A stretch of 64,000 nt of DNA from Candidatus Spongiisociaceae bacterium (GTDB taxonomy: Bacteria > Actinomycetota > Acidimicrobiia > Spongiisociales > Spongiisociaceae), in NCBI GenBank assembly GCA_965219685.1, contig CBDCOH010000002.1:3584001-3648000 (forward strand), read 5' to 3'. Below are positions 1-6,869 of the stretch, in pieces. The notes below the pieces were generated by a model. The model was given only the letters and a program-made list of their open reading frames with translations, had not been told where the DNA came from and did not search any database. Position 1 is the first letter of the stretch. Every line of letters starts with the position of its first letter. The position numbers and the translations under genes were made by a program.

Positions 1-245
1 TTTTGGAGACCGCCGATGTCCTCTCGAATGCTGGCGACCTCGGTTTTGACGCCGGCGACGTCGTTGCGGATGGTGGCCACGTCCTGTTGGAGGTCGGTGA
101 TGTCCTTGCGGATGGTTTGCTGCCCGGTCTCGATGTTGTCCAGCCGGTCGAGGATCTGTGTGAGAATGCCAGCTAGCGCCTCGAAGGCCGCGTCTGTCCT
201 GGCATTGCCCGTTGTGGGGAACCGAACGACTGCGGATTGGGCCAT
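1..245 (-). CDS. Coiled-coil protein, runs off the window edge
   Basis: Translated by hand: ATG at 245 after purine-rich AAGGGGGAAC, then MAQSAVVRFPTTGNARTDAAFEALAGILTQILDRLDNIETGQQTIRKDITDLQQDVATIRNDVAGVKTEVASIREDIGGLQ with heptad periodicity. No stop before position 1. Confidence 0.6.
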   Translation of the reverse strand, partial: MAQSAVVRFPTTGNARTDAAFEALAGILTQILDRLDNIETGQQTIRKDITDLQQDVATIRNDVAGVKTEVASIREDIGGLQ

Positions 246-585
246 GAACGTTCCCCCTTACCTGTGATCGCTTATAGGGTAACTATACCACCCGACCGTT
301 AGATACCGTCAACAAGGTTGGACATCTAACTGGTTCAAGTTTTTCGACTCCAACGAAAAGTGGAAATACCAGGCGCTTTGCGTGGGGCGGATCAATACGG
401 ATGGGACGAGGATGATCGCCGTGTCCGGACCGGCGGCGATGTTTGTGCTCGCGGCACCCTTGACTATGCACGATGGGTGTGACAGCGGCAACCCCTACTC
501 GCACTCGAACGGGACTAACCGGTGGGCACACAGGATCCGCCGCTCGAGACCCCGCCTAGGTGCCGGCGGGGCTGCCAGTGGGTCC

Positions 586-1701
586 CTACTCCAGCCTGTC
601 GACCAATCTCTGGAACTTGCCGGCGGAGAAGGACACGGGAGTGTCCTCCACCCGGTTGCCGGTCTTGTCGATCAGCAGGGCCCGGGATGTGTACGGGCCG
701 CCGTAATGTCTCCACACCGCGTTGGAGCCGTCCCAGAGGTTGGTGAAGGTCAGCCCGTAACGTCGAACGAAGCCCTCGCCGGAACTCCGGGGATTCCAAT
801 GATCCGGGTTGATACCCACCACTGTGACCTTGTCTGTGTTCTTGCGAGCGAACTGCTCGACCTCCGGAGCATGCCTCCGGCAAGTCGGTCACCATTCCGC
901 CCAGAACCAGAACAGCACCCCCTTGTCGCCCGTGAACAGCGAGCGGAGGTTGACGGTCTCGCCGCTGGAGAGGTCGGTCAGGTCGACATCGGGGACGTCG
1001 TCGGAGATGGTGACCGGTTCGGGCTCGGTCGTCTGGTCGTCCTGTTTGAGCAGCGCCCGGTGCAGGAAGGTGGCCATCTCGGCTCGGGTGACCGAATCGT
1101 GGGGGCAGTAGCGGAGCGGGCCGGTCGCGCATCCGGTGGTGATCCCGGCTGTGGCCAGGGCGTCGATGTTCGGCGCGTGGGTGTTGCCTGCGGTGTCCGT
1201 GAAGCCGGCCGGGCCGGCGGGTTCGAGAGCGAAGGCACGGGTGAGGAAGGTGGCCATCTCGGCTCGGGTGACGGCCTGGTCGGGGCAGTAGCGGAGCGGG
1301 CCGGTGGCGCATCCTTTGGTGATCTCACGGTCGGCGAGTTCCTCCGCGTAGCGCGACCACCACTCTGAGGCGTCCACGTCGTCGAAGCGGGAGGTCCCTC
1401 CGGCGGTGACGTCGCCGCCGAGGACCCGGATCAGCCATACGGCCATGACCCATCGCTCGATCTTCTCCTGCGGGCAGAATTCGCCTTCCCCGCACTCGGT
1501 GCCCTCGAACACGCCCGACTCGGCCAGGGCATTGATCGCCGGCTCGTGGAAGTCGCCCGCACCGACATCGGAGAACCCGTCCGCGCCCCCGGCCGGCGGG
1601 GAGGCCAGAAGCGACGCCAGCAGTACCACGACCAGCGCCAACGGGGCGGCCCGACGGCGCCCGGGCGATGCTGTGTGCTCACGGGTTGTCACGGCTGCCA
1701 C
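586..1701 (-). CDS. Exported SLH-domain + TlpA/redoxin-fold protein, probable selenoprotein (UxxC, Sec TGA at 889-891)
   Basis: Signal peptide and three SLH repeats (..VTRAEMATFL..). Reads FWFWAEW-TGA-PTCRRHAPEVEQFARKNTDKVTVVGIN... and stays open into ORF 586..822 (same frame, no other stop). Confidence 0.85.
845..859 (-). promoter_or_regulatory. Candidate bacterial SECIS hairpin CGAGC-AGTTC-GCTCG
   Basis: 5-bp stem with AGUUC loop, 29 nt 3' of the TGA at 889-891. Identical in all three paralogs. Confidence 0.7.
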
Positions 1702-1868
1702 CCCCCTGTCGGGTCGGGCCTCATGATAGTTCTCCGGATGGGTCCGGTGTCGGATACCACCCGGCGCCCGTGGACGGGATGCCGGCCAGCCGTGTCGACG
1801 AGGCCGGAGGATTCAGGACCGGGTCCGGGGCGATCCCCCACGTGCGCAGTCGGTCGTCACGAACCGGA

Positions 1869-2978
1869 CTACTCCAACGCCGCCAGCAACCTGTCGATCA
1901 GGTCCGGGTCGAAGTACGAGTATTGAGGCGAGGGCACCGGGTTGCCCTCCCGGTCGACGAAGCGGAACCTCACCCGGTCGCCCTGCTTGCGCAGCAGCCG
2001 GAACTCGGACCAGGACCCGATCCCGTAGTGCGCTGTCGTTGCCCAGGGCTGATCGTCGCGAAGGATCGGAAAGGTCAAGCCGTGGGTGGCCACGAAGTTC
2101 GTGATCGCGTTAGGAGAATCCTCGGAGTTGATCCCTATGACCTTGACCCTATGGGTGTTGTCACGAGCGAACTGCTCGACCGCGGCCGCTTCCCGCCGGC
2201 ATCTCGGTCAGCCAGGCGAGAAGAACCAGAGCAGGAGGGGCTTGTCGCCGGTGACGAACGAGCGGAGGCTCACGGTGTCTCCCGTGGAGACGTCGGTCAG
2301 GTCTGTGTCGGGGACATCGTCGGAGATGGCGACCGGTTCGGGTCCGGTCATCCGGTCGTTCTGTTTGAGCAGGGCCTGGTGGAGAAAGGTGGCCATCTGG
2401 GCTCGGGTGACCGCCTCGTTAGGGCAGTAGCGGAGGGGGTCGGTCGCGCATTCGCGGGTGATCCCGGCTGCGGCTAGGGCGTCGATGTCCGGCGCGTGGT
2501 GGTCGCCTTCGGTGTCCGTGAAGCCAGCCGGGCTGGCGGCTTCGAGGGCGAAGGCCCGGGTGAGGAAGCTGCCCATCTGGGCTCGGGTGACGTCCTGGTC
2601 GGGGCAGTAGCGGAGGGGGCCGGTGTCGCATCCTTTGGTGATCTCGCGGTCGGCGAGTTCCTCCGCGTGGCGCGACCACCATTCGGAGGCGTCCACGTCG
2701 GCGAAGCGGGAGGTCCCTCCGGCGGTGACGTCGCCGCCGAGGACTCGGATCAGCCATACGGCCATGACCCATCGCTCGATCGGGTCCTGGGGGCAGAATT
2801 CGCCTTCCCCGCACTCGGTGCCCTCGAACACGCCCGACTCGGCCAGGGCGTTAATCGCCGGTTCATGGATGCCGCCCGCACCGACGTCGGAGAACCCGTC
2901 CGCGGCCCCGGCGGGGAGCGGACCCAGCACCGAGGCCACCAACACCACGGCTACCAGGACGGTCGGCCAACCCGTCAT
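1869..2978 (-). CDS. Exported SLH-domain + TlpA/redoxin-fold protein, probable selenoprotein (UxxC, Sec TGA at 2208-2210)
   Basis: Signal peptide and three SLH repeats. Reads LWFFSPG-TGA-PRCRREAAAVEQFARDNTHRVKVIGINSED... in frame with ORF 1869..2093. Confidence 0.85.
2164..2178 (-). promoter_or_regulatory. Candidate bacterial SECIS hairpin CGAGC-AGTTC-GCTCG
   Basis: Same hairpin, 29 nt 3' of the TGA at 2208-2210. Confidence 0.7.
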
Positions 2979-3055
2979 GCGGCGGAGGCGTCAACCTATT
3001 GGGGCGGCGAATACCGGACCAGGTCCGATAGACCTGGTCGGCAGTGGACGCGGCG

Positions 3056-4090
3056 TCATACCAACTCGTCCAATAGGTTCTCGACGCGGGTCCGGTCGTA
3101 GGGTTCGGTCCTCTCCATCAGCCGGTTGCCGAACGGATCCAGGAGCAGGAAGTCGGACGTGGCGTCCATCTCGTAGTGTTCCCATGCCTCACGGGAGTCG
3201 CTCCAGAGCACAGTGAAGGTGGTGCCCTTGTCAGCTACGAACTCCTGGGCTATCTCCAGGGTTCCTATGCCGCCGACGCCTATGACGATGAGGCGGTGGG
3301 AGTTGTCCCGAGCGAACTGCTCGATGGCCGGAGCCTCTTCGTTGCACGTCTCTCAGAACGGCGACCAGAACCAGAACATGAGCGGCTTCTCGCCCTTGAC
3401 CACCGACCGCAGGCTCACCAACTCGCCGGTAGCCGTGTCGAACATCCGGACGTCGGGCACGTCGTCGGAGATCTCGATCGTGAGCGGCGCCTCGGTGGTG
3501 GTCGGCGTGGGTGCCTGGGTGGTGGTAGGCGCCTGGGTGGTGGTGGTCGGTGGCTCGGTGGTGGTGGTCGGCGCTTGGGTGGTCGTGGTGGGCGCGTCGG
3601 TCGTGCTGGTCGTCGGCGCCTGGGTGGTGGATGTCGCCGGTGGTTCCTCGACGGTCGTGGAAGTCACGCCGGTCCCGGCCGTGTCGACGGTGGTGGAGGT
3701 GACTGCGGCGACCGTCGTGGCTGCGGCGGCCGTGGTGGTGGTGCTGTCCGGGACGGCCGATGTCGTCGTGGCGGCCCGGGCCGCGGTGGTGCTGGTTTCC
3801 GGCGCCGTCCCGTCCTCGGAGGGGTCGCGGTCAGCCACGCTGGTCCCGGGGTCGGGCATGGTGGTCCCGGTCGTGGTGGAGGCGCCGGCATCCACGGCGT
3901 CGGCTGCCACCGTGGTGGTGGTTCCGCTCCCGCAGGCGGCGACCATCAGGGCCGCTGCCACCACCCCGGCGTACCAGCCGGGCAACGGACGGGTCGGCCG
4001 TCGCTCCCGTGGCCGACGAGACCGCCTCGGACCCGCGCCCCGGTCCGGATCGACCGTGGCGCTCCCGCCTTCGTCGGCGTGCTGGCCCAT
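3056..4090 (-). CDS. Lipoprotein with Thr-rich stalk + TlpA/redoxin fold, probable selenoprotein (UxxC, Sec TGA at 3353-3355)
   Basis: Lipobox VAAC and TTTTQAP repeats. Reads FWFWSPF-TGA-ETCNEEAPAIEQFARDNSHRLIVIGVGGIGTLEIAQEFVADKGTTFTVLWSDSREAWEHYEMDATSDFLLLDPFGNR...DELV-TGA(3056). The downstream half is missing from the ORF track. Start codon uncertain. Confidence 0.85.
3309..3323 (-). promoter_or_regulatory. Candidate bacterial SECIS hairpin CGAGC-AGTTC-GCTCG
   Basis: Same hairpin, 29 nt 3' of the TGA at 3353-3355. Confidence 0.7.
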
Positions 4091-4340
4091 GGAACAACGG
4101 CTCGGGCTGCGACGAACCGCGCGGGTGTCGCCTGTCACCCACCTTCTCGCTGTCACCGGCTAAGCATAGAGGCTGGTGAGAGTTGCCGATCGGGCAGTGC
4201 AGGGCCACCCGAGGGCCGCAGACGCCGGCTGCGCCGCCGCCGCCGAGGCTCGACCGCCCGCGGAGGGGTCGCGCAAGGGCAACCCGGCCGGATGGCGGTC
4301 GTATCCTCCCGCTACGATCCGGTTGGCCGATCAGGTACCG

Positions 4341-6869
4341 GTGTTGAGAGAAATCCTCAGAAGGGAGGGCGGCGCCCTCCGAGCCTCGTGGCTTGTCCTC
4401 GCGGGCGTCTCCGCAGCGCTGCTGCTGCTTGCCACGCCCGCGCGGGCGGAGTCGCCCTGCGGCTCCCCGACGGTGATTCCCGACGGCTCGGAAGCTCTGC
4501 GGTCCGACTGCGAGGTGCTGTGGGAGTTCTACACCGGTCTCGAAGACCCGGGCGTACTGGACGATGCCGACAACCCCAACGCCTGGCTACCTACCATCCC
4601 GTTCGTCGAGTGGCAGGGACTCGAGGTCCGGAACGACCGGGTCGTAATCCTCTCCCTGTCCGGAGCCGAGTTGAAGGGACCCGTCTCCCCCGGCCTCGGT
4701 GGCCTGGCCGGCCTGCGGGCCCTCTACCTGAACTCCAACCAACTGACCGGTCCGATCCCCCCCGAACTGGGTGACCTCTCGGAGCTCGTCCTGCTGCAAC
4801 TGGACGACAACGGGTTCACGGGACCGATACCCCCGGAGATAGGGCAACTGGCGGAGCTGGTCTACCTTCTCCTGAACAGCAATGACCTCACGGGACCGAT
4901 CCCGCCACAGTTAGGCGACCCCACCAAGCTGAAGTGGCTGTACCTGTTCGGCAACGAGCTGAGCGGGCCGATACCCGAGGAGCTGTCGCGCCTGGACGAC
5001 CTCGAGAAACTCGCCCTGGGCGACAACCAGCTCACCGGGTCCATCCCGCCGGAGCTGGGGAGGCTCGTGAACCTGACCCTGCTGGCGCTCAACGACAACC
5101 AACTCAGCGGGTCCATCCCGCCGGAACTGGAGTCCCTGACCAAGCTGGAACAGCTGTATCTCCGCGGCAACCGGCTGACCGGTCCCATCCCTCCCGGCCT
5201 CGATCAGGTGCTCGAGCCCGCCGACAAGGACGAGATCGATCCCTTCTGGGCGGATCCGCTGGGTCTCATCGCCCACGCGGCCTACTACCGCCAGTACAGC
5301 CTCGGCTCGACTGTCTGGCACGTGTGGTTCTGCGATGTGCCGCTGGGCGACGCGCCCGTCGTGGCGAACGAGGTGGTGAGGCGCCTGAACCGGGAGGTGG
5401 TCTCCTACTTCGAGTGGGTGTCGGGCGACCGGTACCGGCCGAGCTTCCAAGCGGAGGGTTGGCTGGCCGGTGACAGCCGGTCGGACTGTGAGGCCGCGCT
5501 GGAGGCCGAGGACCCCGAGATGCCCATGCTCCTGGTCGAGAACAGCCCCGCCAACGACGGCTACGCGGCGGGCCGGGGACTGGTGGTGCTAGGAGGCGGC
5601 ACGGTCGTCCCGACACCGGGGTTCCGCCAGGCGCGCCTGTCGACCGTGGTCCACGAGATGGGCCATGCGTTGGGCTTCCCGCACTCCTTCGGCGGCAGGA
5701 TCAGATGGTCGCCCGAGGGCCAGCTCAGCGGGGTCTACGAGTACGACAACCCGATGGACATGATGAGCGGCGACCTCGCCCTGGGGCTCGACACCGGGAC
5801 GATCGCCGCCAACCGGTACGCGGCGGGCTGGATCGAACCGGACGAGGTGGCGGTCCACGGGGCGGGAACGACAGCCGTCTACGAGCTCCGCCCGCCTGGT
5901 GCGGGCGGCACCCAGATGCTGGTCCTGCCGGGGAGGAGGCAGGGCGTGTTCACGGTGCTGGGAGCCAGGGTCGCCCTGGGTCATGATGTGGCCATCCCGC
6001 GAGCGGGGGTCGAGGCCTACCGCATCGACCAGAGGGAAGCGGCGTGCACCTACCCCTGGCGGGGCGCTTGCTCGGGAACCGAGCGGCGTACCCAGCCCTA
6101 CCCGCCCGCCGAGCCGGGAGCAGGTTACGGCGACGATCTGGGCAGCCGCGGCCGGCGCCGCCTGGTCGATCACGTGTACCGCCCGGGCGACGTGTTCGAG
6201 ATCGGCACGACCACGATCGAGGTGGTCGAGAAGGTCGGCAACAACTACCGGGTGCGGGTGGCGGACTCCTCTGCGCCGCCGCCCCCGCCGGAGCCCGCCC
6301 CCGGTCCGTCGTTCGACGGGCGCTTCTCCGACGACGACGGCAGCGTCCACGAAGCCGACATCGAAACGATCGCCGCGCTGGGCATCACCGTCGGCTGCAA
6401 CCCGCCCGACAACAACCGTTACTGCCCCGGCGACGTCGTGACCCGGGCGCAGATGATGGCCTTCCTGGCCCGCGCCCTCGGCGAGGAGGGCGACCCCGAG
6501 GTGACTACCGGCCGGTTCTCCGACGTGCCCGACAACGCCTGGTACCTGCCGTACCTGGAGCGGCTGGCCGACCTCGGGGTGGTCGAACCCTACGAGGACG
6601 GCACCTTCCGCCCTGACGAGCCCATCACCCGGATCGACATGGCCGTGCTCCTAATGCGAGCATTCCCGGGCATCGACGAGGTGACCGAACCCGAGGGAGT
6701 CTTCGTCGATGTGCCCGCAGACGCTCCGCACGCGGGGGCGGTCGAGGGCATCCTGGCGGCGGGGGTCACCAAAGGATGCTCCGAGGACCCACTCTCCTAC
6801 TGTCCCGGCGGGGCCGTGCCCCGCGACCAGATGGCGTCCTTCCTGGCGCGAGCCCTGAAAGCCGGCTAG
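4341..6869 (+). CDS. Secreted LRR + zinc metallopeptidase (metzincin-like) + C-terminal SLH protein
   Basis: Signal peptide ending PARA; about 8 24-aa repeats LxxLxLxxNxLTGPIPPELG; HEMGHALGFPH and a YDNPMDMMS Met-turn-like motif; Pro linker; three SLH repeats. Start uncertain (ORF open from 4176). Confidence 0.8.
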   Translation: MLREILRREGGALRASWLVLAGVSAALLLLATPARAESPCGSPTVIPDGSEALRSDCEVLWEFYTGLEDPGVLDDADNPNAWLPTIPFVEWQGLEVRNDRVVILSLSGAELKGPVSPGLGGLAGLRALYLNSNQLTGPIPPELGDLSELVLLQLDDNGFTGPIPPEIGQLAELVYLLLNSNDLTGPIPPQLGDPTKLKWLYLFGNELSGPIPEELSRLDDLEKLALGDNQLTGSIPPELGRLVNLTLLALNDNQLSGSIPPELESLTKLEQLYLRGNRLTGPIPPGLDQVLEPADKDEIDPFWADPLGLIAHAAYYRQYSLGSTVWHVWFCDVPLGDAPVVANEVVRRLNREVVSYFEWVSGDRYRPSFQAEGWLAGDSRSDCEAALEAEDPEMPMLLVENSPANDGYAAGRGLVVLGGGTVVPTPGFRQARLSTVVHEMGHALGFPHSFGGRIRWSPEGQLSGVYEYDNPMDMMSGDLALGLDTGTIAANRYAAGWIEPDEVAVHGAGTTAVYELRPPGAGGTQMLVLPGRRQGVFTVLGARVALGHDVAIPRAGVEAYRIDQREAACTYPWRGACSGTERRTQPYPPAEPGAGYGDDLGSRGRRRLVDHVYRPGDVFEIGTTTIEVVEKVGNNYRVRVADSSAPPPPPEPAPGPSFDGRFSDDDGSVHEADIETIAALGITVGCNPPDNNRYCPGDVVTRAQMMAFLARALGEEGDPEVTTGRFSDVPDNAWYLPYLERLADLGVVEPYEDGTFRPDEPITRIDMAVLLMRAFPGIDEVTEPEGVFVDVPADAPHAGAVEGILAAGVTKGCSEDPLSYCPGGAVPRDQMASFLARALKAG

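Follow-up and report, generated by a model that had tools for sequence, protein, structure and literature searches.

A hairpin retained downstream of in-frame UGA codons in redoxin genes of Acidimicrobiia is a probable SelB-binding selenocysteine insertion element

The window analysed here, a stretch of 64,000 nucleotides, carries three redoxin genes on its minus strand, each with an in-frame TGA that we read as selenocysteine (Sec, U; Table 1). All three proteins exceeded the Pfam gathering cut-offs for Redoxin (58, 46.5 and 37.4 bits; cut-off 26.6) and AhpC-TSA (55.9, 51.8 and 36.4 bits; cut-off 26), and these domains span the active site. In gene 1, which scored 58 bits for Redoxin, 55.9 for AhpC-TSA and 56.7 for SLH, the TGA lies within the span of the redoxin matches. 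The Sec-UGA is aligned to a Cys of CxxC in distant homologs. None of the NCBIfam models scored above its cut-off on the three proteins; the best match, ResA, reached 48 bits versus 170, and NF041054, an established family of selenoproteins (ResA-like WAxxUGC), reached 21 bits versus 300. With the ResA/TlpA/DsbE-like oxidoreductases and with NF041054, the proteins have in common the thioredoxin fold, extracytoplasmic targeting and an active site of the form W-x-x-x-[U/C]-x-x-C. Unlike these, the redoxins described here carry SLH domains, a Thr/Pro-rich linker or RCC1 repeats as fusion partners. The likeness to ResA is one of fold only, with the proteins falling outside the ResA, DsbE and TlpA equivalogs. 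We predict that the three genes and a fourth paralog in the same genome encode exported ResA/TlpA-like thiol-disulfide oxidoreductases with selenocysteine as the first active-site residue.

Table 1. Genes, Sec codons and hairpins of the redoxin locus (window coordinates; +n, nucleotides after the UGA)
Feature	Position	Strand	Description
Gene 1	586..1692	(-)	Signal peptide + SLH + Redoxin/AhpC-TSA; selenoprotein motif WAEW-U-PTC; ORF read with TGA=U
Gene 1 start codon	1690-1692	(-)	GTG
Gene 1 stop codon	586-588	(-)	
Gene 1 Sec codon UGA	889..891	(-)	In-frame TGA; first position of UxxC
H1 of gene 1	864..880	(-)	CCGGAG-GCAUG-CUCCGG, +9..+25; extendable to +3..+30
H2 of gene 1	845..859	(-)	CGAGC-AGUUC-GCUCG, +30..+44; proposed SelB-binding apical hairpin
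Gene 2	1869..2978	(-)	Signal peptide + SLH + Redoxin/AhpC-TSA; selenoprotein motif FSPG-U-PRC
Gene 2 Sec codon UGA	2208..2210	(-)	In-frame TGA
H1 of gene 2	2179..2200	(-)	About +8..+29; -9.4 kcal/mol
H2 of gene 2	2164..2178	(-)	15-mer match and fold
Gene 3	3056..4090	(-)	Lipoprotein-like N-terminus + Thr/Pro-rich linker + Redoxin; selenoprotein motif WSPF-U-ETC
Gene 3 stop codon	3056-3058	(-)	True TGA
Gene 3 Sec codon UGA	3353..3355	(-)	In-frame TGA
H2 of gene 3	3309..3323	(-)	15-mer match; missing from the minimum-energy fold of this copy

The genome contains tRNA-SeC together with selA (435.7 bits), selB (322.7 bits versus a cut-off of 242.25) and selD (366.9 bits), the last with one in-frame TGA (Sec-containing selD).

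Downstream of each Sec-UGA lies the same 15-mer, CGAGCAGTTCGCTCG, which forms a distal hairpin (H2). A preliminary description of this DNA had reported an identical 15-nt hairpin 29 nt after each UGA in otherwise divergent redoxin domains, and both statements were confirmed. The window contains exactly three matches to the 15-mer even with two mismatches allowed, all on the minus strand, at the coordinates in Table 1 and exactly 29 nt from the TGA, and the redoxin domains of the locus are 40-45% identical in protein. Dinucleotide shuffles gave a mean of 0.26 matches and none of 100 shuffles reached three. Four exact copies occur in the whole genome, the fourth in the remaining paralog (G000:C2:237463-237477, minus strand), again 29 nt after an in-frame TGA.

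The third codon positions within H2 (+30, +33, +36 and +42) had an entropy of 0-0.11 bit among 65 Sec forms of the order. In the same set, the other third positions ranged from 0.66 to 1.91 bits (1.63 for Ala at +21, 1.69 for Val at +69), and the third base of the Arg codon just outside the stem had 1.61 bits. The Ala codon in H2 was GCT in 65/65 Sec forms; across 913 long ORFs of the genome, GCT accounts for 8.1% of the Ala codons. What keeps this rare GCU in place is the pairing of its U with the A of GAG; GCC, GCG or GCA in its place weakens H2 from -6.1 to between -0.7 and -1.7 kcal/mol. The retention of GCT against codon preference and the RNA-level constraint read from it, both put forward in the preliminary description, thus hold, with synonymous sites frozen in H2 while nearby third positions vary freely. 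H2 lies within the reading frame and therefore dictates both the codons and the peptide, (V/I)-E-Q-F-A-R.

In the protein-anchored set of 65 Sec forms from the order, H2 was 100% paired without a one-sided stem change. Compensatory changes were seen from C1-G15 to U1-A15 (7 genes from 6 genomes of 3 families) and from A3-U13 to C3-G13 in one genome (G413), where Glu became Ala and GCT became GCG. The other three of the five stem pairs were invariant throughout. Among seven H2-type genes of the class set, the sole one-sided change was C5-to-U in L303, which creates a TAG stop. The loop varied at positions 6 and 10 only, its G and U-U being invariant in 65/65 sequences. H2 was missing from the minimum-energy fold in 6/65 sequences. 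Covariation, for which the preliminary description had called for a test, was present at two H2 stem pairs, but a combined measure over H2 and the proximal hairpin H1 (see below) in the order-level alignment was no better than shuffles (3 pairs with two-sided changes versus a shuffled mean of 2.7; 310/500 shuffles reached 3). We conclude that H2 is under RNA-level constraint and is retained almost unchanged across a whole class of actinobacteria.

We found the pattern TGA-N6-TGY-N20-motif in at least 127 public stretches, while its TGY version was found in eight, only one of them from Acidimicrobiia. H2 is associated with UGA, not UGY. The use of the 15-mer as a probe for hidden selenoproteins, also proposed earlier, led back to the redoxin family only, which accounted for 4/4 matches in the genome and 125/128 of the collection matches listed. 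Cys orthologs had been expected to lose the hairpin. Most nested Cys forms have indeed lost it or carry it in degraded form, but one (L039) keeps the same nucleotides. Six of eight Cys forms fetched in the class search were without H2 and two had a degraded H2; among seven Cys forms grouped with Sec forms in the tree, H2 was intact only in L039, which retains the identical 15-mer and is a very recent Sec-to-Cys convert. Distant Cys homologs have ERVHQ, SRVAD, DSLAQ and similar peptides at the H2 site. Since they do without E-Q-F-A-R, we suggest that the RNA dictates this peptide rather than the peptide the RNA.

A proximal hairpin, H1, lies between the UGA and H2. The structure pointed out earlier for copy 1 is real (-13.0 kcal/mol for +4..+29) but not peculiar to that copy, being selected family-wide. 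The family-wide local-fold profile peaked at H1 (-11.1 kcal/mol) and H2 (-9.4 kcal/mol) above a background of about -3.7 kcal/mol, and H1 reached -7.5 kcal/mol or lower in 59/65 sequences. It was more stable than synonymous resamples in 177/185 sequences, which are related and not independent, under a null that applied the codon usage of this genome to every species. A fixed-register model of H1 on a 66-sequence alignment gave 71% pairing; it was replaced by per-sequence folds, a positional profile and synonymous resampling because the register differs between clades. In gene 3, H1 is weak (-5.5 kcal/mol; -5.0 kcal/mol in its ortholog) because Arg CGG is replaced by Asn AAC, and H2 is intact in both. 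H1 is conserved and selected across the redoxin family, variable in sequence and covarying.

Other selenoprotein genes of the genome carry different hairpins after their UGA, with loop starts from +18 to +33. The loops are GGUCU at +19 in both the FDH and the AhpD-like gene, GGUC at +24 in ArsC, AGUUG at +18 in the GrdB-like gene and GGUCC at +33 in SelD. The redoxin hairpin loop (RGUYN) matches all of these. Two confirmed selenoprotein genes of the genome depart from R-G-U-Y, namely GrdB (CGGGU) and an AhpC-like gene (GGACU), with loops read by eye. The R-G-U-Y rule picked up more selenoprotein genes here, ArsC and the AhpD-like gene, plus one unannotated membrane-protein candidate. A GC3-based scan for in-frame TGAs was noisy: it gave 80 candidates, of which many came from neighbouring genes or antisense frames. 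SelD escaped it, as did two redoxin paralogs out of four, namely gene 1 and the fourth. Two of its candidates (C2:1134748 and C2:3186973) were dropped for want of a Pfam match. The SelD hairpin (+27..+43) was retained in 26/26 Sec forms and absent from the 3/3 Cys forms examined. The tandem layout of SelD comprises 12 pairs, 97.3% paired and three with compensatory change; slid controls were 19-46% paired. Sec redoxin homologs without H2 were of two types, one with an AGUUG loop at +17 (L036, L085) and the other, seen in 15 genes and showing compensatory variants of the stem, with a GGUC loop at +27. Given the different hairpins of the same genome and these two further solutions in sister-clade redoxins, H2 is not a SECIS type that holds for the whole lineage.

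Could the identical 15-mer reflect only protein conservation of E-Q-F-A-R combined with codon bias, or recent duplication or gene conversion among paralogs? GAG, CAG, TTC and CGN are preferred codons of the genome, and the redoxin paralogs stand in tandem. However, the rare GCT (8.1%) persists in 65/65 Sec forms whose proteins share only 30-45% identity, synonymous sites adjacent to H2 are saturated, the stem changes are compensatory and distant Cys homologs have other peptides at the site. This explanation is already contradicted, and we regard it as scarcely credible. It is also very improbable that the palindrome CGAGC...GCTCG is a DNA-level site (operator, recombination or methylation) and not an RNA structure. 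The stem arms do form an inverted repeat in the DNA, and the compensatory changes keep the DNA palindrome as well. Yet the 15-mer occupies the coding strand in every case, with constant spacing to the UGA in the reading frame, and almost never follows UGY; its invariant loop bases G-U-U are asymmetric, and the loop is similar to those of the genome's other SECIS elements. Moreover, the pair flanking H2 alternates between U-A and U-G, which is meaningful in RNA alone.

A third explanation, unlikely though less remote than these two, reverses the roles of the hairpins: H1 would be the SelB-binding SECIS, and H2 would be kept for a different role in the RNA, for instance as a second pause site, in RNase protection or in the prevention of H1 mispairing. 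H1 could be the SelB site because of its canonical SECIS position and the many H1 loops that begin with G. It starts 8-9 nt after the UGA with its loop at +14..+18, near the E. coli geometry (11 nt) as outlined in PMC8659212. No other local structure in the gene is as stable, H1 shows covariation and exceeds synonymous resamples in stability, and in relatives of the AGUUG type the GU loop is carried by a hairpin at the position of H1. On the other hand, H1 loops are not conserved (GAG, GGC, GAA, CAU, CACG, CAUG, AAGCC, AAGAGGC and others), the H1 register varies between clades and H2 is intact in gene 3 of the window and its ortholog, where H1 is weak. The loop motif common to the other SECIS elements of the genome is that of H2, not H1, and in SelD the Sec-specific element of the lineage is the hairpin that starts at +27.

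Taking these points into account, we consider it likely that H2 is the apical SelB-binding stem-loop of the selenocysteine insertion signal in the redoxin genes. We infer recognition by SelB from the likeness of H2 to known elements. SelB with Sec-tRNA(Sec) would bind R-G-U-Y-N, the loop of H2, and bring the tRNA to the ribosome at the UGA. H1 (about +9..+28) may serve as a compact spacer, as a roadblock at the ribosomal mRNA entrance, or both, and would let the far-placed H2 act like the near hairpins of other genes, whose starts lie around +12..+17. We tentatively extend this to a two-part 'far' SECIS of the Acidimicrobiia, which we hold to be possible rather than probable. Such an element would combine a sequence-free hairpin of ~19 nt, 8-9 nt after the UGA and at the mRNA entrance, with a SelB-binding hairpin with an R-G-U-Y loop. 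By reducing the effective distance, or by stalling the ribosome, the first hairpin would allow the SelB site to lie ~30 and not ~12 nt from the UGA. The layout would have arisen independently in SelD and the redoxins, E-Q-F-A-R would thereby have been fixed through the history of the class, and sister clades would use single hairpins with loops at +17 or +27.

H2 offers a clear example from nature in which an RNA signal has prevailed over codon bias and imposed a protein motif through a very long span of evolution. The genes also document a family of predicted exported, SLH cell-wall-anchored selenoproteins whose genes are truncated at the UGA by standard gene callers. Within a single gene family there would be three SECIS solutions, their loops beginning 17, 27 and 35 nt from the UGA, a series suited to asking how SelB, SECIS and ribosome tolerate distance. 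If the two-hairpin reading is true, an accessory element would be added to the bacterial SECIS model.

An Rfam scan of window positions 1-5000 (E up to 10) returned no SECIS family and only two weak unrelated matches, from a library in which bacterial SECIS elements are poorly represented. A search of literature that included few subscription journals, on tandem or two-stem bacterial SECIS elements and Acidimicrobiia selenoproteins, gave no description of the element, which may nonetheless have been published. The bacterial SECIS consensus, as outlined in PMC13188914, has an apical loop of 3-9 nt, an upper stem of 4-16 bp, 16-37 nt between UGA and loop, a G at loop position one or two, with G or U as the usual next base, and an energy of -7.5 kcal/mol or lower. 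H2 lies in frame and 3' of the Sec-UGA in a genome with selA, selB, selC and selD. It agrees with that outline in its 5-nt loop, its 5-bp stem (6 bp with the U-A/U-G extension), the G of its loop A-G-U-U-C and its distance of 34 nt from UGA to loop in all copies, which bears out the earlier description of a SECIS-like hairpin with G-U in its loop. Its energy is -6.1 kcal/mol for the 15-mer and -8.0 kcal/mol with the flanking U-A pair. Compared with the bSECISearch consensus model as outlined there, H2 is near the upper limit of the permitted distances, the 15-mer alone is weaker than -7.5 kcal/mol, and the structure before H2 is a distinct conserved hairpin in place of a lower stem belonging to one and the same helix.

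The SECIS of E. coli fdhF is described in PMC8659212, in outline, as a 40-nt element whose upper stem-loop, of 17 nt, lies 11 nt from the UGA. It has in common with H2 a SelB-type hairpin with a G-U loop, in frame and downstream of the UGA. The fdhF-type features (11-nt spacing, bulged U and GGUC loop) are not found in H2, which has a 29-nt spacer, no bulged U and the loop AGUUC. The greater distance noted in the preliminary description is therefore real, and in the redoxins the spacer is filled by a second hairpin. Separately, the FDH-like gene of this genome has a loop, GGUCU at +19, that is near-identical to the E. coli fdhF loop.

The selenocysteine redefinition element (SRE) of SEPN1 forms a stem-loop shortly downstream of the UGA. 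H1 resembles this element, as presented in PMC3541580, in being a structure right after the Sec-UGA that is distinct from the factor-binding SECIS; unlike H1, the SRE is eukaryotic and works together with a 3'-UTR SECIS, and no homology is implied. Within the same order, the SelD SECIS resembles the redoxin layout, with a proximal hairpin at +8..+26 followed by the +27..+43 hairpin with loop GGUYC. Like H2, it is found in Sec forms and missing from Cys forms, and the loop variant GGUUC occurs in both families. It differs in gene, stem sequence and closing pair, and its stem admits G-U wobbles, in contrast to the near-invariant stem of H2. Because H2 agrees in loop, stem and distance with the bacterial SECIS consensus as outlined above, at the far end of its distance range, it is probably an element of an already known kind, the bacterial SECIS, that is specific to this redoxin family.

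The 15-nt sequence CGAGCAGTTCGCTCG, which folds into the distal hairpin H2 (+30 to +44, where +n is the nucleotide position 3' of the UGA), occurred three times in the window, and no further copy was found there even with two mismatches allowed. Shuffled sequence gave a mean of 0.26 matches and three were reached in none of 100 shuffles. Reading the minus strand with TGA as a sense codon placed the copies in three tandem genes, each exactly 29 nt downstream of an in-frame TGA. The exact 15-mer was present four times in the whole genome (4.42 Mb); the fourth copy has the same UGA-29 nt-hairpin layout in a paralog outside the window. The preliminary description had reported this fixed motif and spacing in divergent redoxin domains, and both statements proved accurate (pairwise identity of the domains: 40-45%).

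Coordinates of the redoxin genes, other TGA-bearing genes and further features (positions in the window, or on contig C2 of the source genome G000)
Feature	Location	Strand	In-frame TGA	15-mer or hairpin loop
Redoxin gene 1	window 586-1692	minus	889-891	15-mer 845-859 (minus)
Redoxin gene 2	window 1869-2978	minus	2208-2210	15-mer 2164-2178 (minus)
Redoxin gene 3	window 3056-4090	minus	3353-3355	15-mer 3309-3323 (minus)
Fourth paralog, L095	G000:C2:237168-240227			15-mer 237463-237477 (minus)
FDH-like molybdopterin enzyme	G000:C2	plus	437446	GGUCU, +19
GrdB	G000:C2	plus	1404829	CGGGU
AhpC/Redoxin (WSSW-U-GC)	G000:C2	plus	2675030	GGACU
GrdB-like	G000:C2	minus	2667460	AGUUG, +18
ArsC	G000:C2	minus	3483659	GGUC, +24
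CMD/AhpD-like	G000:C2	plus	4242156	GGUCU, +19
SelD	G000:C2	minus	2565482	GGUCC, +33
Candidate unannotated selenoprotein, L321	G000:C2:813281-814414	plus	813800	AGUUC, from +20
Divergent neighbour ORF	window 4176-6869	plus		
tRNA-like gene	G000:C2:1659740-1659823			

A Redoxin/AhpC-TSA thioredoxin-fold domain spans each TGA (Pfam); no NCBIfam model reached its cut-off. Genes 1 and 2 have signal-peptide-like N-termini and an SLH cell-wall-binding domain (Pfam), and gene 3 starts like a lipoprotein and carries a long linker rich in Thr and Pro. The fourth paralog (1019 residues) combines 11 RCC1 repeats, SLH and a Sec-containing Redoxin domain (Pfam). The TGA takes the place of the first Cys in the CxxC motif typical of ResA/TlpA/DsbE-like proteins, and the genome encodes tRNA-SeC, selB (322.7 bits) adjoining selA (435.7 bits), and a selD with its own in-frame TGA. 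We conclude from the position of the TGA and the full Sec machinery that the TGA-bearing redoxin genes are selenoprotein genes. In the ORF listing, the divergent neighbour (897 residues) appeared by eye to have leucine-rich repeats, an HExxH region like that of metalloproteases, and SLH-like repeats at its C-terminus; if this reading is true, the locus groups genes for proteins anchored to the cell wall. Elsewhere in the genome, an 84-nt tRNA-like gene has a four-base anticodon (tctc), and ARAGORN assigned it no identity.

Searching 401 genomes from the order at protein level returned 78 places, 69 with one in-frame TGA and nine with none. The fetched DNA gave 79 distinct segments. The E-[Q/R]-[F/L]-A motif was present in 66 of them, 65 Sec forms (TGA) and one TGC form, and these were aligned without gaps. 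Among the Sec forms, the third codon positions of the H2 stem and loop G were essentially invariant: C in 64 and T in one at +30, G in all 65 at +33 and +36, and T in all 65 at +42. Other third positions had entropies of 0.66-1.91 bits, also where the amino acid is conserved (Ala at +21, 1.63; Val at +69, 1.69; Arg right after the stem, 1.61). The retention of GCT against codon preference, first noted in the window, thus holds for every Sec form, although across 913 long ORFs in the source genome GCT accounts for only 8.1% of Ala codons. Its U pairs with the A of GAG, and any other Ala codon would leave the hairpin at -0.7 to -1.7 kcal/mol instead of -6.1, which explains why GCT is kept.

RNAalifold returned from this alignment H2 alone, plus a U-A/U-G extension, and the H2 pairs were formed in 100% of cells. 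Four of the five pairs are invariant at this level, with a single compensated variant within the order (TGAGCAGTTTGCTCA, in genome G004), so the order alignment by itself gave weak formal statistics for covariation. Covariation, which the preliminary description had proposed to test, was seen across the class. A pattern search of 401 genomes of the class with two mismatches allowed matched in 58 genomes, compared with 13 matches in total for the reversed control pattern. A U1-A15 variant was found in seven genes from six genomes and three families, and in the variant CGCGCAGTTCGCGCG of genome G413 the pair A3-U13 is replaced by C3-G13, changing Glu to Ala and the Ala codon from GCT to GCG. No one-sided stem change was seen among the class-search matches listed with family-like flanks. 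The protein-anchored order and class sets, which are unbiased regarding the motif, contained only one, a C5 to U change in locus L303 (G488:C79); it turns a CAG inside H2 into a TAG stop, so this gene is probably dead. Another locus, L099, has a second in-frame TGA in place of the usual Arg following the active-site Cys; both loci look broken and may be pseudogenes or sequencing errors. In the loop, only position 6 (A or G) and position 10 (all four bases) varied, and G7, U8 and U9 were invariant in Sec forms. The case for constraint on H2 as a putative RNA element rests on the frozen synonymous sites and the class-level compensations together.

We also searched one genome each for about 185,000 species with the pattern TGA-N6-TGY-N20-motif. 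At least 127 stretches matched, nearly all from Acidimicrobiia by record titles; in 125 of 128 matches (121 distinct 47-mers) the frame was open on both sides and Trp stood just before U. With TGY in place of TGA, the pattern matched only eight stretches despite covering two codons rather than one, and its lone match in Acidimicrobiia was the Cys form L039 (TGC), whose 15-mer is identical to that of Sec forms. In a quick tree L039 is sister to the Sec form L041 on short end branches (0.094 and 0.035), which identifies it as a recent Sec-to-Cys convert. L169 and L127, both genuine members of the family carrying the complete motif, lie in bins titled Jiangellaceae and Actinomycetes MAGs rather than Acidimicrobiia, which points to horizontal transfer or mis-binning.

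The class-level protein search yielded 74 places: 65 with one TGA, one with TGA and TAG, and eight with neither. H2 had been expected to disappear from Cys orthologs. This was so in six of the eight Cys forms fetched, and it was degraded in the other two, L295 (GGAGCAGGTCGCTCG; outer pair broken, one loop U changed) and L298 (CGAGCAGGTCGCGAA; Ala codon GCG), but L039 keeps it intact. The quick tree (108 rows, root not inferred) contained a 93-row group (support 93, not starred) with all 73 H2-type genes, 12 with a GGUC loop, one other Sec gene (L303) and seven Cys forms, of which L039 alone has an intact H2. Distant Cys homologs carry ERVHQ, SRVAD, DSLAQ and other peptides at this place, so the fold does not demand E-Q-F-A-R. 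The peptide is best accounted for as a side effect of the RNA.

The source genome encodes seven further selenoprotein genes, each supported by a Pfam or NCBIfam match across the TGA (table). We scanned 563 coding-like in-frame TGAs for an R-G-U-Y loop closed by a stem of 4 bp or more and obtained 13 hits, among them five of these genes and two of the redoxins (AGUUC, +35). The loops of GrdB and the AhpC-like gene, read from the sequence, did not fit the rule. The hydrophobic, membrane-like candidate L321 (motif ...YSP-U-GISF...; no Pfam match) has the hairpin GGGCC-AGUUC-GGCCC, with a loop identical to that of H2. The selD gene was present in 41 of 41 relatives searched and TGA-bearing in 38. 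Its hairpin GGCGCA-GGUYC-UGCGCC (+27 to +43) was kept in 26 of 26 Sec forms and missing from all three Cys forms (L273, L276, L284) among 29 selD genes examined. An R-G-U-Y hairpin starting 27-30 nt past the UGA is therefore a Sec-specific element in a gene of the same lineage unrelated to the redoxins. Sec redoxins lacking H2 have GGCGGG-AGUUG-CCCGCC (loop +17; L036 and L085) or, in the class-level set (15 genes, among loci L299-L314), CCUC-GGUC-GAGG (loop +27) with compensated stems CUUC/GAAG and CUGC/GCAG. One redoxin gene family thus has three putative SECIS placements, the H2-less types being in other families. The 15-mer marks a single gene family and does not serve as the general probe for hidden selenoproteins once proposed.

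A proximal hairpin, H1, occupies the stretch from the UGA to H2; its sequence and register vary, and its loops show no conservation. Its fold energy (+4 to +29) averaged -11.6 kcal/mol, and 59 of 65 sequences reached -7.5 or lower; the weakest were those of window gene 3 (-5.5) and of its ortholog (-5.0). A 24-nt sliding fold of 65 genes gave only two peaks, H1 (-11.1) and H2 (-9.4), over a background of about -3.7. H1 was more stable than peptide-keeping synonymous resamples in 177 of 185 family sequences (mean -11.8 vs -7.7), with the codon usage of the source genome applied to all species and the rows being related. Sec forms of SelD likewise have a proximal AGCUCG-N7-CGAGCU (+8 to +26) directly 5' of the GGUYC hairpin (loci L261-L290); the 12 pairs of this tandem were formed in 97.3% of cells, with compensatory change in three, vs 19-46% in slid controls. 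In the source genome, near-type hairpins start at +12 to +17 and two far-type hairpins at +27 to +30; each far-type hairpin follows another hairpin about 19 nt long. H1 may accordingly act as a compact spacer, as a roadblock where the mRNA enters the ribosome, or as both, and a two-part far SECIS common to redoxins and SelD is plausible.

In the consensus given by a 2026 review (PMC13188914), a bacterial SECIS has 3-9 nt in its loop and 4-16 bp in its upper stem, and loop position 1 or 2 is a G, mostly with G or U after it; the UGA-to-loop distance is 16-37 nt and the fold energy at most -7.5 kcal/mol. H2 agrees in loop, stem, G position and distance (34 nt), and reaches this energy only with its flanking pair. 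For Actinomarina (Acidimicrobiia), excerpts of a 2026 preprint report that Sec machinery and a SelD with Sec are present and that Rfam SECIS models fail, and do not describe the H2 element (10.64898/2026.04.03.716425); nor was it found described in literature on tandem bacterial SECIS or Acidimicrobiia selenoproteins, in a collection covering few subscription journals. The core of the preliminary interpretation, an RNA hairpin serving Sec insertion far from the UGA, is well supported by comparative evidence. H2 probably belongs with the known bacterial SECIS elements; it is family-specific and conserved across the class. Its geometry is unlike that of the E. coli element, in which 11 nt separate the UGA from an upper stem-loop of 17 nt (PMC8659212). 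For H1, a possible functional analogue is the eukaryotic SRE of SEPN1, as outlined in excerpts of PMC3541580.
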